Source of the DNA: Actinomycetota bacterium
GTDB taxonomy: Bacteria > Actinomycetota > Thermoleophilia > Solirubrobacterales > 70-9
NCBI GenBank assembly: GCA_018268575.1
Contig: JAFDWF010000208.1
Span: forward strand, 1,540-65,539
Length of the DNA: 64,000 bases
Direction: 5' to 3'
In this document: positions 7,037 through 52,384 of the stretch, in pieces
Numbering within the stretch: the first letter of the stretch is position 1
Layout: every line of letters begins with the position of its first letter
Position numbers and translations under genes: made by a program
Notes under the pieces: model-generated
What the model saw: only the letters and a program-made list of their open reading frames with translations
Told to the model about the DNA's origin: nothing
Database searches by the model: none

Positions 7037-7975
7037 TTGGAGAAATTTCTCCGAAGACCTTTGGCCCTGGCGGCAGACATCGTGGAGAGACTGGAGCAGC
7101 AGCTCGGCGCCGCCGAAGGCGAGCCGACCGTGCTCGGCGGCGGGATCACCAACCACAACTTCCGCGCCCGGTTCGGCGGCCGCGAGGTGGTGGTGCGGCT
7201 GCCCGGCAACGACACCGAGCTGCTCGGCTCCGATCGCCCGGGGGAGCGCGAGGCGAACTCGCTGGCGGCCGCGGTCGGGGTGGCGCCGGCGGTGCTCGCC
7301 CACCTCGAGGACCCGGTGGTGCTGGTGACCGAATTCGTCGAGGGGCCGACGATGGAGTCTGCCGAGCTGCGCGAGCCGCGGGCGCTCGCCGGGGTGGCGG
7401 CGGCGCTGCGGAAGATTCACAGCTGCGACGCCCGCCTGGCGGCCCGCTTCGACGCCTTCCGGCTGGTCGAGGAGTACGCCGCGACGAGCCGGTCGCGGGG
7501 CGGCGAGGTGCCGGCCGCCTACGAGCGCGCCCACGCCGCGGCGGCCCGGATCGAGGCGGCGCCGGCGCTCGACGGCGGCGCCCCGGTCCTCTGCCACGAC
7601 GACCTCCTCCCCGCCAACTTCATCGCCACGCCCGCCGGGATCCGGATCGTCGACTGGGAGTACGCGGGGATGGGCAACCGCTGGTTCGACCTCGGCAACT
7701 TCGCCGTCAACAACGAGCTCGGCCTGGCCGAGGAGGAGGTTTTCTTGAGCGTCTACCTGGGCACCGCGCCCTCCCCCGCCGACCTTGCCGCGCTGCGCTT
7801 GATGCGGCTGATGTCCGACTTCCGCGAGGCGATGTGGGGGGTCGTCCAGCAGGCGATCTCCGACCTCGACTTCGACTTTGAGGAGTACGCGACGAAGCAC
7901 TTCGACCGTCTGCTGGCGGCAATCGAGAGCCCCGGGTTCGAGGCGATGCTGGAGGACGCCGGTGCCGCGCGCTGA
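7037..7975 (+). CDS. Phosphotransferase, choline/ethanolamine kinase-like (APH fold)
   Basis: Motifs are 'GGGITNHNF', 'LCHDDLLPANF' (HxDxxxxN catalytic loop) and 'IVDWEYAG'. The start is TTG 7037 from the track; GTG 7082 is an in-frame alternative. Confidence 0.8.
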   Translation: MEKFLRRPLALAADIVERLEQQLGAAEGEPTVLGGGITNHNFRARFGGREVVVRLPGNDTELLGSDRPGEREANSLAAAVGVAPAVLAHLEDPVVLVTEFVEGPTMESAELREPRALAGVAAALRKIHSCDARLAARFDAFRLVEEYAATSRSRGGEVPAAYERAHAAAARIEAAPALDGGAPVLCHDDLLPANFIATPAGIRIVDWEYAGMGNRWFDLGNFAVNNELGLAEEEVFLSVYLGTAPSPADLAALRLMRLMSDFREAMWGVVQQAISDLDFDFEEYATKHFDRLLAAIESPGFEAMLEDAGAAR

Positions 7976-10511
7976 GCTGCCCGAGGCGGCCCGCTGCGTG
8001 ATAATCGGCGGCGGCGTCGGCGGCACCTCTCTCGCCTACCACCTGGCCGAGCTGGGTTGGGAGGACGTCGTGTTGGTCGAGCGCAACCAGCTCACCTCCG
8101 GCTCGACCTTCCACTCAGCGGGGCTGGTCGGGCAGCTGCGCGGCTCGGTCTCGCTGACCAAGATGATGATGCACTCGGTCGAGCTCTACCGGCGGATCGG
8201 GAAGGAGTCGGAGTTCGACCCGGGCTGGGTCGAATGCGGCGGCATCCGGCTCGCCGCGACCGAGGAGCGGATGGAGGAGCTGCGCCGGCAGGCGGGCTGG
8301 GCAAAGACGTTCGGGCTGCCGCTGGAGCTGATCTCGGCGGCGGAGGCGCAGGAGCTCTTCCCGCTGATGTCGACCGAGGGCGTGCTCGGCGCCGCCTGGC
8401 TGCCGACCGACGGCTACATCGACCCCTCGCAGCTGACCTACGCGCTCGCCGACGGGGCGCGGCGGGGCGGCTGCCGGATCTTCACCGACACCCGGGTGAC
8501 CGGGATCGAGGTGCGCCGGGGGCGCGTGCGCGGGGTGCGGACCAAGCGCGGCGAGATCGCGGCGGAGGTCGTGGTCGACGCGGGCGGCATGTTCGCCGCC
8601 GAGATCGGCCGCATGGCCGGCGTCCGCGTGCCGCTCCTGCCGATGTCCCACCAGTACCTGGTGACCCAGCCGCTGGACGCGGTGCGCGAGGCGCGAGCGG
8701 CGGCGGGCGGCCGAGCGCGTTCGCAGTTGCCCACAACTGTTGTGGGCAACTGCGAACGCACAGAGGGGGACGGCCGCGGGCATCTGCCGACGCTGCGCGA
8801 TCCCGACCTGCTCGTCTACTACCGCGAGGACGGCGACGGGCTGGTGATGGGCGGCTACGAGCGCCAGAGCGAACCGGCCTTCCTCCCCCGCGGCAGCGGC
8901 GATTTCGAGGCGATCCCGCCCGACTTCAACGGCCGCCTGCTGGAAGAGGAGTGGGACCGCTTCGAGGAGATCACCCGCAACTCCGAGCGCCGCGTCCCGG
9001 CGATGGCCGAGATCAAGGTGACCAAATTGATCAACGGCCCCGAGGCCTTCACCCCCGACAACGAGTTCTGCCTCGGCGAGTCGGAGGTGGCGGGCTTCTT
9101 CGTCTGCGCCGGCTTCTGCGCCCACGGCCTCGCGGGCGCGGGCGGGATCGGCAAAGTCCTCGCCGAGTGGGTCGTCGACGGCGAACCGAGCCTCGACCTC
9201 TGGCACATGGACATCCGCCGCTTCGGCCCCGCCTACCGCTCCCCCTCCTACACCCACAAGCGGATCCGCGAGACCTACGAGACCTACTACGACATCCGCT
9301 ATCCCAACCACGAGCGCGAGGCCAGCCGGCCGCTGCGCGTCTCCCCCGCCAACGCCTGGCATCGCGAACACGATGCCGCCTTCGGCGAGAAATCGGGCTG
9401 GGAGCGGGTCAACTGGTACGAGCCGAACGCCGCCGCCGGCGAGGAGGCGCTGCGCCCGCGCGGCTGGGCGGGGCAGAACTGGTCGCCCGCGATCGGCGCC
9501 GAGCACCGCGGCTGCCGCGAGCGGGTGGCGATCTTCGACGAGTCCTCCTTCGCCAAGCTGGAGATCGAGGGACCGGGCGCGGCCTCCTTCCTCGAAGTGC
9601 TCTGCGACAACCGCGTCGCCCGCGGGGTCGGCCAGATCACCTACACCCAGATGCTGAACCATCGCGGCGGGATCGAGTGCGACTTCACGGTCTCCCGCCT
9701 CGGCGAGGAGCGCTTCGGGATCGTCACCGGGACCGCCTTCGGCAACCACGACCGCGAATGGATGCGCCGTCACCTGCCCGACGGCGGCGAGGTGCGGATC
9801 CACGACGTCACCTCGCAGTGGGCCTGCTTCGGAGTCTGGGGACCGCGGGCGCGGGACGTGCTCCAGCCACTCACCCCGGCGGACCTCGGCAACGAGGCCT
9901 TCCCCTACATGACCGTGCAGGAGATCACCGTCGGCGACGTGCCGGTGCGGGCGCTGCGGGTCACCTACGTCGGCGAGCTCGGCTGGGAGCTCTACTGCCC
10001 GACCGAGTACGGGCTCGGGCTGTGGCGGGCGATCTGGGCGGCGGGCCAGGAGCACGGCATCCTCGCCGGCGGCTACCGGGCGATCGACTCGATGCGGCTG
10101 GAGAAGGGCTACCGGGTCTGGGGTGCGGACATCACCCCCGACGAGACCCCCTACGAAGGCGGCGTCGGCTTCTGCGTGAAGCTCGACAAGGGCGAATTCG
10201 TCGGCAGCGAGGCGCTCGGCGCGGCGGTGGAGGACGGCCCGCGCCACAAGCTCGTCTGCGTCACGCTCGCAGATCCGCGCCGGGTCGCACTCGGCAACGA
10301 GCCGGTGCGGTCGGGCGGCGACGTGGTCGGGCGGGTGACGACGGGGGGCTACGGCTACACGGTCGAGCGCTCGATCGCCTACGCCTACCTGCCGCCGGCG
10401 CTCGCCGTGCCGGGGACCGCGGTGGCGATCGAGATCTTCGGCAGCTGGGTCGAGGGCGAGATCGCCGCCGAGCCGCTCTTCGATCAGGCGGGCGAGCGGA
10501 TCAGGTCCTGA
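7962..10511 (+). CDS. FAD-dependent oxidoreductase fused to GcvT-type aminomethyltransferase domain (dimethylglycine/sarcosine dehydrogenase family)
   Basis: Trimmed to GTG 7962 (GGAGGA 6 nt upstream), which overlaps the end of the kinase gene. The N-terminal Rossmann motif is 'VIIGGGVGGTSLAYHLA' and 'HQYLVT' is present. The C-terminal half is folate-binding GcvT-like ('GYRAIDSMRLEKGY', 'GGYGYTV'). Confidence 0.85.
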   Translation: MPRAELPEAARCVIIGGGVGGTSLAYHLAELGWEDVVLVERNQLTSGSTFHSAGLVGQLRGSVSLTKMMMHSVELYRRIGKESEFDPGWVECGGIRLAATEERMEELRRQAGWAKTFGLPLELISAAEAQELFPLMSTEGVLGAAWLPTDGYIDPSQLTYALADGARRGGCRIFTDTRVTGIEVRRGRVRGVRTKRGEIAAEVVVDAGGMFAAEIGRMAGVRVPLLPMSHQYLVTQPLDAVREARAAAGGRARSQLPTTVVGNCERTEGDGRGHLPTLRDPDLLVYYREDGDGLVMGGYERQSEPAFLPRGSGDFEAIPPDFNGRLLEEEWDRFEEITRNSERRVPAMAEIKVTKLINGPEAFTPDNEFCLGESEVAGFFVCAGFCAHGLAGAGGIGKVLAEWVVDGEPSLDLWHMDIRRFGPAYRSPSYTHKRIRETYETYYDIRYPNHEREASRPLRVSPANAWHREHDAAFGEKSGWERVNWYEPNAAAGEEALRPRGWAGQNWSPAIGAEHRGCRERVAIFDESSFAKLEIEGPGAASFLEVLCDNRVARGVGQITYTQMLNHRGGIECDFTVSRLGEERFGIVTGTAFGNHDREWMRRHLPDGGEVRIHDVTSQWACFGVWGPRARDVLQPLTPADLGNEAFPYMTVQEITVGDVPVRALRVTYVGELGWELYCPTEYGLGLWRAIWAAGQEHGILAGGYRAIDSMRLEKGYRVWGADITPDETPYEGGVGFCVKLDKGEFVGSEALGAAVEDGPRHKLVCVTLADPRRVALGNEPVRSGGDVVGRVTTGGYGYTVERSIAYAYLPPALAVPGTAVAIEIFGSWVEGEIAAEPLFDQAGERIRS
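8717..8759. repeat. 43-nt perfect palindrome inside the dehydrogenase CDS
   Basis: The sequence is gcgttcgcagttgcccacaac-t-gttgtgggcaactgcgaacgc, with 21-nt arms that are exact reverse complements. Both strands translate to SQLPTTVVGNCER (compare antisense ORF 8438..8761). Confidence 0.95.
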
Positions 10512-11227
10512 GTCAGCGCCGGGAGGAGGCCGGCGAGGATATGCTCGGTGCCCTCGGTGTGCTCGCGGATCAGACGGACCGCGCGCGGTCCGTCTTCGCG
10601 GCGCAGCGCCTTGACGATCTTCGCGTGCTGGTCGTTGGCGCGGGCGAGCACCTCGGGCGGGTGGGCGATCAGCGCGATCAGGTCGGTCATCTGACCCTGC
10701 ACGTCGGTCATCGCCGCGACCAGGCGCGGCGAGCCGGCCGCCTCGGCGAGGCCGATGTGGAAGCGCAGGTCGGTGCGGCGGTACTCCTCGAAGTCCTCGG
10801 TCTGCGCGGCCATCGCCTCGATCAGCTCGTCGAGCCGATCGAGGCGCGGCGCCCGCGCCCGCTCGGCGGCGAGCAGGACCGACCCCGCCTCGATCGCCAC
10901 GCGTTGGTCGAGCACCTCCCAGGCACCAGCGTCGAGGGGCTCGCCCGTCGGGTCGACCAGCGGCGGTGCGTCGGCGACGAAGGTGCCCCCGGCGCGGCCG
11001 CGGAGGGAGACCAGGTGGCCGCTCTGGACCAGGGTGGTGAGCGCCTGGCGCAGGGTCGAGCGCGAGATCCGCAGCTGCTTGGCCAGCTCGCGCTCCGGCG
11101 GCAGGCGGCTGCCCGGGCCGAGGAGGCCGAGGCGGATCGCGGTACCGAGGCGCTCGACCGTCTCCTCGAAGGTGCTGGGCGGCTGGACCGGCATGAAGAC
11201 CGCCTCGAGGGCGGCGTCCTGCTCCAT
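10484..11227 (-). CDS. GntR-family transcriptional regulator (FadR/FCD subfamily)
   Basis: The N-terminal winged HTH is 'LPPERELAKQLRISRSTLRQALTTLVQSGHLVSLRGRAGGTFV', followed by a helical FCD-like C-terminal domain. It overlaps the dehydrogenase 3' end convergently by 28 nt. Confidence 0.85.
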   Translation of the reverse strand: MEQDAALEAVFMPVQPPSTFEETVERLGTAIRLGLLGPGSRLPPERELAKQLRISRSTLRQALTTLVQSGHLVSLRGRAGGTFVADAPPLVDPTGEPLDAGAWEVLDQRVAIEAGSVLLAAERARAPRLDRLDELIEAMAAQTEDFEEYRRTDLRFHIGLAEAAGSPRLVAAMTDVQGQMTDLIALIAHPPEVLARANDQHAKIVKALRREDGPRAVRLIREHTEGTEHILAGLLPALTQDLIRSPA

Positions 11228-47565: not shown

Positions 47566-47644
47566 CGTCGGCGGCCCCAAACTCGCCGCGCGCTGCGGCC
47601 TTCGCGGCGCGCGAGGGGGGCGAAATGCAGCCCTGCGTGGATTC

Positions 47645-47662
47645 ACCACACCATGGTGTGGT
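47645..47662. promoter_or_regulatory. 18-bp perfect palindrome accacacca|tggtgtggt centred on the start codon of the next gene
   Basis: Read from the sequence. The ATG at 47653-47655 lies in the centre. Confidence 0.3.
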
Positions 47663-48573
47663 CAAAACACGCAGCGCGCGGTCCGACGGGCGAGGAGCGC
47701 GGGCGGGCGGCTTGGTCGCTCGCGCGACGCCAGCACTGGGTGCTGACGCGTGCGGATCTCGAGTCGCTCGGCTTCGGTCATCGGAGCATCGAGCATCGGG
47801 TGGCGAGCGGTCGCCTGCACCTGGTCTCCCGTGGGGTCTATGCGGTCGGTCGGCGGGAGCTGACGCCTGACGGACGCTGGATGGCGGCGGTGCTCGCCTG
47901 CGGCGACGGGGCCGTGCTCAGTCACTGCAGCGCGGCCGAGCTCTGGGGGATCGGTCACGAGGTCCGGGGACGGATCGACGTCACCATCAGGCGGCGCAGC
48001 AAGATCACACGTCGCGGGATCAAGGTCCGAGCCCGGCCCTCCCTCGCCAGCCGGTCCCTCACCCGGCGGCACGGCATCCCGGTGACCAACGTGGTCCAGA
48101 CCTTGATCGACCTGGCGACCGAACTTCCGCCACTCCGCCAGGAGCGGGCGGTCAACGAGGCGGACAAGCTCGACCTGGTCGACCCGGAGACGCTCCGCCA
48201 CGAGCTTCACGGCCACAAAGGCCAACCCGGCGTGAAGACCCTGGCGACGCTGCTCGATCGCCACACCTTCCGGCTCTCGGACTCTGACTTGGAGATCCTC
48301 TTCCGGCCCCTGGCGCTCGCCGCCGGGCTCCCGCTACCGCTCACCAAGCACCGGGTCCTCGACTACGAGGTCGACTTCTTCTTCCCCGACCACGACCTGA
48401 TCGTCGAGACCGACGGCCTGCGCTACCACCGCACCCCGTCACAGCAAGCTCGTGCCGCCAAACGGGATCAGGTCCACACCGCGGCCGGATTCGCCGTCCT
48501 TCGCTTCACGCACTGGCAGATCGCCCACGGCGCCGACGAAGTCACGGCGATCCTCAGGCGATTCCGCTCCTAG
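47653..48573 (+). CDS. DUF559 / Vsr-like endonuclease-domain protein with AbiEi-like N-terminal domain
   Basis: 306 aa. The N-terminal part is 'RQHWVLTRADLESLGFGHRSIEHRVASGRLHLVSRGVY'. The C-terminal part 'YEVDFFFPDHDLIVETDGLRYHRTPSQQARAAKRD' is typical of DUF559. Confidence 0.75.
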   Translation: MVWSKHAARGPTGEERGRAAWSLARRQHWVLTRADLESLGFGHRSIEHRVASGRLHLVSRGVYAVGRRELTPDGRWMAAVLACGDGAVLSHCSAAELWGIGHEVRGRIDVTIRRRSKITRRGIKVRARPSLASRSLTRRHGIPVTNVVQTLIDLATELPPLRQERAVNEADKLDLVDPETLRHELHGHKGQPGVKTLATLLDRHTFRLSDSDLEILFRPLALAAGLPLPLTKHRVLDYEVDFFFPDHDLIVETDGLRYHRTPSQQARAAKRDQVHTAAGFAVLRFTHWQIAHGADEVTAILRRFRS

Positions 48574-52303: not shown

Positions 52304-52384
52304 GGAGGGTCAGGGGTGTCCCTCCCCGGACAAGCCTCGCTTCGCGGGCTTTGAGTGTCCGGGGAGGGACACCCCTGACCCTCC
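52304..52384. repeat. 81-nt nested perfect inverted repeat (29-nt arms, 23-nt spacer)
   Basis: Arm 1 (52304-52332) is ggagggtcaggggtgtccctccccggaca. Arm 2 (52356-52384) is its exact reverse complement. Each arm also contains its own ggaggg...ccctcc hairpin. It lies in the 145-bp hemB/ABC divergent intergenic region. Confidence 0.95.

Follow-up and report, generated by a model that had tools for sequence, protein, structure and literature searches.

How a perfect 43-nt palindrome comes to lie in frame within a gene for an FAD oxidoreductase fused to a GcvT folate-binding domain is the question raised by the 64,000-nt stretch of DNA analyzed here (the window). All coordinates are positions within this window unless a contig or locus is named, and the window itself corresponds to C120:1540-65539 of the source metagenome-assembled genome (MAG), designated G000 (4.30 Mb in 226 contigs, assembled from short reads, 87% complete, 70.2% GC). 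A sequence-only reading of the locus had attributed the palindrome to the in-frame insertion of a miniature palindromic mobile or repeat element, and this interpretation is supported by ∼117 copies of the repeat, by empty sites in orthologues and by at least nine further in-frame copies. The palindrome is very probably a resident, non-autonomous copy of a hairpin family that resembles the repetitive extragenic palindromes (REPs), is carried by uncultured Solirubrobacterales and sits here in a length-variable loop of the FAD domain. The family is undescribed, and the copy in the window is an ordinary member of it rather than a gene-specific signal.

The Palindrome and Its Repeat Unit

The palindrome occupies positions 8717-8759 and reads GCGTTCGCAGTTGCCCACAAC-T-GTTGTGGGCAACTGCGAACGC. 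Its arms of 21 nt (8717-8737 and 8739-8759) are 100% complementary around a 1-nt center, exactly as had been claimed, and a perfect palindrome with 21-bp arms would be expected by chance ∼3e-6 times per 64 kb at 70% GC (own arithmetic). The sequence was also said to be AT-richer than its surroundings. Here, the GC content of the 43-mer was 60.5%, compared with 70.2% for the genome, and local GC content, taken in 60-nt intervals, fell to 0.65 at the palindrome from values of 0.72-0.85 in the neighboring intervals. Folded as RNA, the hairpin had an energy of −50.5 kcal/mol (z −6.4), and folded as DNA, one of −34.2 kcal/mol (z −7.5). The features of the locus are as follows.

7962-10511, + strand: host gene, FAD oxidoreductase fused to a GcvT folate-binding domain (DAO + FAO_M + GCV_T + GCV_T_C)
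8649-8801, + strand: variable segment HQYLVT...LPTLRD, 51 aa (homologue alignment)
8717-8759, no strand: perfect 43-nt palindrome (arm comparison and folding)
8715-8761, no strand: full repeat unit, GCGCGTTCGCAG...CTGCGAACGCAC (nhmmer profile match at C120:10254-10300, 49.9 bits; boundaries from the pairing profile)
8715-8762, + strand: 16 element-encoded codons, ARSQLPTTVVGNCERT, in the RSQ..CER frame (open reading frame translation)
8708-8713, no strand: left cggccg, a common GC-rich hexamer outside the element
8771-8776, no strand: right cggccg, a common GC-rich hexamer outside the element

The repeat unit combines the conserved outer arms of the family with an inner stem of the G000 type (CCCACAAC/GTTGTGGG). 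When the hairpin was searched against Rfam, only sub-threshold matches to miRNA-precursor hairpin models were returned, and no terminator-like T tail was found at the hairpin. An attC-like reading was dropped on inspection of the sequence, in which the order of the GTT...AAC boxes does not fit R''/R'. The cggccg hexamers to which the earlier reading drew attention are present on both flanks but are coincidental; a target duplication was ruled out given that the family has no flanking direct repeats and that element-bearing relatives have no second cggccg.

A Family of Hairpins in the Source Genome and Its Relatives

A blastn-short search with the 43-mer recovered at least 45 related copies in G000. 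A profile built from 110 regex-anchored copies matched 131 sites in the same genome, 117 of them at ≥30 bits, such that the copy-number check by BLASTN that had been suggested shows the 43-mer to be one of ∼117 relatives and not unique. The family consensus is (G)GTGCGTTCGCA[C/G]TT, followed by a variable inner stem with a 3-5-nt loop (21 nt in all) and then AA[C/G]TGCGAACGCAC(C), with the ends (G)GTGCG...CGCAC(C). From GTTCGCA to TGCGAAC, 109 of 110 copies measure 39 nt, and the unit is 47-49 nt long, complementarity being at chance level just beyond its ends. Covariation was evident in the inner stem: among copies from other genomes, pair 15-25 was Watson-Crick in 84%, against 34% after shuffling, with four pair types represented. 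Pair 8-32 of the 39-nt core (the C/G in GCA[C/G]TT...AA[C/G]TGC) paired no more often than expected by chance (55%) across all genomes; as a tolerated mismatch in an otherwise strict stem, it could be a recognition feature. The dominant inner stem in G000, CCCACAC..GTGTGGG, was found in 80 of 112 copies, and at least 10 further palindromic repeat families of 33-51 nt are present in this genome.

A sample of 150 genomes of the order contained no exact-arm match. The notion of a genome-specific family was dropped when a scan of all species-representative genomes showed this absence to be due to sampling: at least 111 stretches were recovered in ∼25 MAGs, almost all of them Solirubrobacterales or unclassified Actinomycetes, and the carriers include closed long-read chromosomes. 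Five other carrier genomes (G195-G199) were found to hold 232, 174, 66, 29, and 5 copies, and tandem pairs occur with a period of 60-61 nt. Dominant inner stems are genome-specific (CTGCTCGCATGGCGAGCGAA in G199 and CTCCGCGCATAGCGCGGAGA in G195), and in more distant relatives the 39-nt architecture recurs with different arms, e.g. GTTCGTCCTT.. in G190.

The spread of the family bears on the possibility of an assembly artefact, which the sequence-only reading had raised; a fold-back chimera produced during assembly would be one example. In favor of this explanation, G000 was assembled from short reads into many fragments, with repeats at many contig ends. However, given that family palindromes are found at this codon position in independently assembled metagenomes (L030 and L035; P0002-P0016) and that the family is present in closed long-read chromosomes, an artefact is very unlikely; the reading frame is, moreover, preserved.

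The Host Gene and Its Insertion Site

The palindrome lies in frame within an open reading frame (ORF) at 7878-10511, where the earlier reading had placed it, and the peptide across it reads ...GRARSQLPTTVVGNCERTEGDG.... Comparison with the N termini of homologues puts the true start of the host gene at the GTG at 7962, giving a protein of 849 aa. This protein aligns end to end with dimethylglycine oxidase (1PJ5), the closest solved relative, with an E value of 1e-158, and the gene is predicted to be an intact gene for a dimethylglycine oxidase-like enzyme.

The HQYLVT and LPTLRD blocks are separated by 39 residues in the window, the number previously counted. The spacing of ∼15 residues given for DMGDH/SARDH-type enzymes was close to that observed, namely 10-18 residues in element-free orthologues and ∼17 in 1PJ5. 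The segment as a whole measures 22-23 aa in outgroup orthologues (QPFRERxxxxLPTLRD) and 28 aa in a genome of the same genus (G190). Among the 120 closest homologues, 54 (87-88% identical) are empty at the site, with a segment of 30 aa, and the other homologues have 31-59 aa. By allele, the segment is 23-31 aa long when empty and 36-59 aa long when filled. Empty sites, for which a search had been proposed, are therefore found among the orthologues, and the protein alignment yielded an insertion of 21-29 aa, varying with the reference chosen (∼25 aa had been anticipated).

The Gly/Ala-rich linkers beside the element (AAAGG and EGDGRG) also differ among relatives. In many filled alleles, RSQ....NCERT represents the translated conserved arms and the middle is variable. 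In the DNA of other lineages, the site is occupied by palindromes that share this architecture (TTT/AAA shoulder and CG[G/C]ATAGCG center) but have quite different arms (GGTGTCCCCTTCCTTTG.., AAGTCCGCCGGACCTTTG.., GGTGTGGTTGAGCTTTGG.., and ACGCATTTGTCCCCG..). Among relatives the site is accordingly empty, occupied by this family or occupied by differently armed palindromes, and in L060 one arm is left (KVRRTLGH), representing a collapsed palindrome.

The insertion site is an alignment gap relative to the solved homologues 1PJ5, 4PAB, and 5L46. HMMER alignments to mammalian DMGDH split exactly at this site, and 1PJ5 has a short unrelated loop there. An AlphaFold2 model of the 849-aa protein, built with 36 close homologues, had a mean pLDDT (predicted local distance difference test score) of 44.9 and a pTM (predicted template modeling score) of 0.33 and was too poor for use. 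Given the alignment gap to solved structures and the free variation of the site in length and sequence, the element is predicted to form an extra 16-residue stretch, exposed at the surface, in a permissive, length-variable loop of the FAD domain. Its tolerance would be explained by a 48-nt unit that amounts to 16 codons, stop-free in the host frame, and by a loop that accepts almost any sequence, such that the element would simply be read as the 16 residues listed above plus Gly/Ala-rich linkers, with no role specific to the host gene.

Copies in Other Genes and between Genes

At least 10 in-frame copies, that of the host gene included, were identified in Pfam-validated genes, with domains that flank or surround each insert. 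The nine others lie in genes for MurT, MurC, an Oxidored_FMN/Pyr_redox_2 reductase (an old yellow enzyme/dienoyl-CoA reductase-like protein), a GT2-TPR protein, a YjeF_N/Carb_kinase protein, a SpoU methylase, a rhodanese, AddB, and a GNAT protein. The MurC copy sits inside Mur_ligase_M, and at this one site MurC orthologues display empty, single, tandem-double, and other-family states. Of 108 copies, 102 have no stop codon in the first of the three frames of the element (RSQLPTTVVGNCER), 81 in the second (VRSSPHIVWGTAN), and 45 in the third (AFAVSHTGWGKVRT). Frame usage of the in-gene copies is roughly proportional to these counts, and the host-gene copy uses the RSQ..CER frame, i.e. that which is stop-free in 102 copies.

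A tandem pair of palindrome-encoded peptides was observed at the MurC site in P0131, P0145, P0147, P0155, P0158, P0161, P0167, and P0221, and other MurC orthologues have a different repeat peptide, GVRRASLSGPPSAGVPGEGRP, at the same site. At L201 5525-5687 (CAVWCG010000001.1), the 3' end of the tgt ORF runs through three tandem copies that have a period of 60 nt. The C terminus of the product (queuine tRNA-ribosyltransferase) is extended there by ∼70 residues, and the first two repeat units are identical.

The context of the 117 copies in G000 was counted with a rough gene prediction based on GC content at the third codon position (GC3), which assigned 25 copies to the inside of ORFs, 34 to convergent, 40 to tandem, and 8 to divergent positions, and 10 to contig ends. 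Background intergenic spaces of ≥50 nt numbered 290 convergent, 956 tandem, and 331 divergent (chi-square ∼30, own arithmetic). Copies favor the 3' ends of genes, as REPs do.

The sequence-only reading had also considered a structured signal hidden in the coding sequence. As a selected, cis-acting signal of the host gene, the hairpin might pause ribosomes between subdomains so that these fold co-translationally, affect the stability of the mRNA, or bind a protein; it is indeed very stable, and a palindrome with complementary arms persists at the same codon position in many lineages. Such a signal is nevertheless unlikely, given that ∼117 copies in unrelated places, mostly intergenic, behave alike and that at least 10 independent losses are found in orthologues that are still 85-90% identical. 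The outgroups and solved homologues are also without the element, and the hairpin has neither an Rfam family at threshold nor a terminator tail.

Inherited Positions and Genome-specific Inner Stems

Both flanks of 73 copies from other genomes were mapped onto G000. Forty-five copies mapped collinearly, and at 23 of these 45 positions G000 was also occupied by a family copy. Pairwise alignments revealed truly orthologous positions, for example directly after orthologous stop codons. The orthologous copies had kept their outer arms, and their inner stems were different yet self-complementary in each genome. Over 17 tight orthologous pairs, the flanks were 85% identical and the inner 21 nt 50% identical, whereas the corresponding inner identity was 51% for non-orthologous pairs between genomes and 65% for the same copies within G000. 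The MurC site showed the same pattern at the DNA level (L202 versus C136) and at the peptide level. Given that the positions are orthologous and the inner stems no more alike than those of non-orthologous copies, it is clear that positions are inherited and sequences homogenized within genomes, i.e. that the copies undergo concerted evolution. Re-insertion exactly into resident copies is a formal alternative to homogenization.

A gene tree of 46 host-gene orthologues was calculated with IQ-TREE, the HQYLVT-LPTLRD segment having been left out. On this tree, the filled and empty states required 12 changes, at least 10 of which were forced by well-supported branches, and each arm type required 3-4 origins, no fewer than for shuffled labels. 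Given that the deepest branches of the QPLDAVREAR clade are all filled, one old gain with many deletions and in-place sequence turnover would fit the tree as well as repeated insertion. The site may thus have been first filled at the base of the QPLDAVREAR clade and then lost at least 10 times by deletion. Complementarity of the arms would be preserved if the site had been repeatedly overwritten in step with the repeat population of each genome, and selection on the host gene would then not be needed to explain arms that are both complementary and genome-specific.

Alternatively, the host-gene site, like the MurC site, might be a hot spot hit independently many times by different lineage-specific palindromic elements, with no overwriting in place. 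Both the 12 changes between filled and empty states and the 3-4 origins needed for each of arm types B to E accord with this explanation, as do the tandem double copies at the MurC site and elsewhere, and the 10 or more palindrome families in G000 could compete for sites. However, neither a conserved target motif nor a target duplication was detected, and one-arm remnants point to loss. In addition, half of the intergenic positions are common to genomes with 85%-identical flanks, with an inner stem that is each genome's own, and a hot spot would therefore require re-insertion at dozens of identical positions. Repeated insertion without overwriting is for these reasons considered doubtful, and a resident family with turnover in place is preferred.

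Mobility Genes and a Candidate Nuclease Partner

No matches to Y1_Tnp (PF01797; RAYT/IS200) were obtained in G000 (87% complete) or in G195-G199 by a search to which control genomes responded. Reverse transcriptase (PF00078) was absent from the 232-copy genome, and TnpB (PF07282) was found in none of the genomes tested. At offsets 0-8, direct repeats of 2-6 nt beside the copies did not exceed the shuffled expectation, indicating no target duplication, and no conserved target motif was found at the insertion sites. The draft genome contained no larger element bounded by half-arms; unpaired half-arms were degenerate copies or chance 9-mers, none of which bounded a transposase gene.

These results bear on whether the palindrome is a classical REP, or a REPIN, moved by a REP-associated tyrosine transposase (RAYT) or a transposable element of the miniature inverted-repeat kind (MITE) moved by a DDE transposase encoded elsewhere. 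The family does resemble REPs in its copy number, its hairpin form, and its placement 3' of genes (PMC3733652). By contrast, PF01797 is missing from G000 and the five other carriers, there is no GTAG or CGTC tag and no target-site duplication, and neither a larger element bounded by half-arms nor TnpB was found, nor reverse transcriptase in the genome with 232 copies. Movement by a RAYT or a DDE transposase is therefore improbable.

The genes located between two copies ≤3.5 kb apart in G000 were all ordinary housekeeping genes except for a DUF559 gene that had been missed by the GC3-based calls. This gene (C98:9819-10739, outside the window) encodes a 306-aa AbiEi_4 + DUF559 protein and has a family copy on either side, at 9795-9843 and at 10725-10770. 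The loop of one copy contains the ATG of the gene (..CCCCCACT ATG CGTGGGG..), such that the right arm of this hairpin specifies the first residues of the protein, MRGELRTH, and the TGA stop is inside the second family copy. Orthologues with 55-75% identity are present in G195, G199, G196, G197, G198 (degraded), and DATJUK01, all in the same order, i.e. a copy, ∼33 nt with GGGGGGAGAAC, a copy with the ATG in its loop, the gene, and a stop codon with a further copy. Orthologue identity fell together with family copy number, the pairs being 74% and 232, 71% and 174, 57% and 66, 55% and 29, and 45% (broken gene) and 5; G177 has neither the nuclease gene nor the repeat family. At the C98:9795-10770 locus (L234 496-1471), a third family copy is located 800 bp further on, after a thioredoxin-like gene.

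All nine nuclease paralogues in G000 begin inside a palindrome of 35-52 nt, and several of these palindromes match multi-copy families, the start palindrome of the C224 paralogue matching the CCATGTCCTTTGT.. family. The window contains one such AbiEi_4 + DUF559 gene (47653-48573), the ATG of which is at the center of a 48-nt palindrome at 47631-47678, GCCCTGCGTGGATTCACCACACC ATG GTGTGGTCAAAACACGCAGCGC, preceded by GAGGGGGGCGAA. The arms of this palindrome resemble a 15-copy G000 family (CGCTGCGTGGATCGACCCTGCCATGG..), and the start palindrome of the gene was matched to the CTGCGTGGAT.. family. A paralogue in G190 begins inside GCGCTCCCTTCCTTTGTTCCGCT ATG .., and the same arm type fills the host-gene site in L034, L036, L043, and L097. 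The palindrome at 8717-8759 is a gene-less family member.

The vertically inherited AbiEi-wHTH/DUF559 (Vsr-like) nuclease gene, bracketed as it is by family copies, is a lead to the agent responsible. If resident hairpins were cleaved and the breaks repaired with other copies as template, the family would be spread as well as homogenized. It is possible, although we advance it tentatively, that each palindrome family is maintained by its own AbiEi-wHTH/DUF559 nuclease, the gene for which starts inside a hairpin of that family, and that cutting and copy repair make more than 100 dispersed 48-nt repeats evolve in concert across the genome, among them translated copies in essential genes such as murC and murT. 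The clear concerted evolution of positionally conserved copies, those in essential genes included, goes beyond the known picture, as does the apparent systematic pairing of palindrome families with DUF559 nuclease genes. In the literature covered by the searches, no paper was found that links DUF559 to such repeats, and nothing relevant was found on Solirubrobacterales repeats or on concerted evolution of REPs.

Several points weigh against the interpretation of a resident family maintained in this way. Recurrent lineage-specific insertion at one hot spot would fit the gene tree equally well, and the context statistics of the copies rest on rough GC3-based gene calls. Arms of 12-13 nt are short as anchors for RecA-type recombination in gene conversion. 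Seven other stretches in G000 also lie between two copies, each with one or two ordinary genes or none called. Finally, the link to DUF559 is a lead that consists of arrangement and correlation, and the orthologous nuclease loci, being syntenic, are not independent cases.

Comparison with Known Systems

The Rickettsia palindromic elements RPE-1 to RPE-10 (RPEs; Ogata et al. 2000/2002), as far as they are summarized in PMC10969869 and PMC3733652, lie in frame in many unrelated, still intact genes. They had been cited as the precedent for in-frame palindromic repeats, and their behavior is matched here, with in-frame copies in ten genes counting the host gene. As these summaries describe for RPEs, the family consists of palindromic repeats that occur between genes and in frame in unrelated intact housekeeping genes, where they would be read as extra peptide in permissive regions. 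RPE hosts, according to the same summaries, are AT-rich obligate intracellular Alphaproteobacteria, whereas the host here is a free-living soil member of the Actinomycetota with 70% GC. Moreover, compared with RPEs as summarized, the unit is much shorter (47-49 nt), several families share one genome, the inner stems are genome-specific, and a candidate DUF559 partner gene is present. To the extent of these summaries, the likeness is behavioral, consisting of in-frame copies in ten Pfam-supported genes, and taxon, GC content, and unit length differ.

With the REP/REPIN-RAYT systems (PMC3116915, PMC3337134, and PMC5581495), the family shares dozens to hundreds of short GC-rich hairpins located mostly 3' of genes, vertically inherited positions, a dominant master sequence within the population of each genome, and a vertically inherited gene that is present once and has its own repeats on both sides. 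By contrast, there is no Y1/HUH transposase in the six carrier genomes and no GTAG head, and the repeat is one long near-perfect hairpin, whereas REPINs are doublets of small imperfect hairpins. The flanked gene here is one for an AbiEi-wHTH + DUF559 (Vsr-like) nuclease with its start codon in the hairpin loop. REPs have been found inside known genes in several species, a behavior that the family shares, and otherwise lie mainly between convergent and unidirectional ORFs, and some REP dimers sit within longer palindromes (Di Nocera et al. 2013, PMC3733652). Unlike the CGTC-tagged REPs of that paper, which makes no mention of Actinomycetota, the family has no CGTC tag or CCA tail, and its stems are 21-23 bp rather than 8-9 bp.

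Like the family, MITEs such as the Correia elements of Neisseria (PMC10969869) are small and non-autonomous, have inverted repeats, and in some cases are read through within genes. Here, however, no target-site duplication was found and, in the draft genome, no related full-length insertion sequence, and a single hairpin makes up the entire unit, leaving hardly any internal sequence. The family is therefore placed neither with REP/RAYT systems, having no RAYT in the six carrier genomes and no GTAG or CGTC tag, nor with MITEs, having no target-site duplication. On the approximate gene calls, it has the placement of REPs, with many copies that are mostly extragenic and 3' of genes, and it also has the layout of a nuclease cassette, in which an AbiEi-wHTH/DUF559 gene is flanked by copies of the same family and gene-less copies lie elsewhere.

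Implications

In-frame "selfish" palindromes are not peculiar to Rickettsia but occur also in free-living high-GC soil bacteria, including in essential cell-wall genes. Such palindromes inflate and diversify loops in orthologue alignments, where they may be mistaken for functional inserts or assembly errors, and they help to fragment short-read MAGs. The family represents a natural map of insertion-tolerant sites in proteins and shows with unusual clarity how dispersed short repeats evolve in concert. The DUF559 link offers a concrete candidate for the upkeep of REP-like repeats that have no RAYT and may give a function to a large uncharacterized nuclease family. If true, it would constitute a nuclease-repeat partnership that parallels REPIN-RAYT but relies on another enzyme, and REP-like repeats without a transposase would have their missing partner.

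Other Repeats

An 81-nt nested perfect inverted repeat is located at 52304-52384 in the window. It matched only itself in the genome by blastn-short and, being single-copy, is not a member of the palindromic repeat families found here. More than 150 partial copies of a mosaic intergenic repeat of ∼600 bp, which combines several hairpin modules, are present in G000; many of them are at contig ends, which probably explains the fragmented assembly. An example is found at C189:97360-97970 of G000 (locus L027, ∼863-1470), between a short-chain dehydrogenase/reductase (SDR) gene and a thiamine pyrophosphate (TPP) riboswitch.

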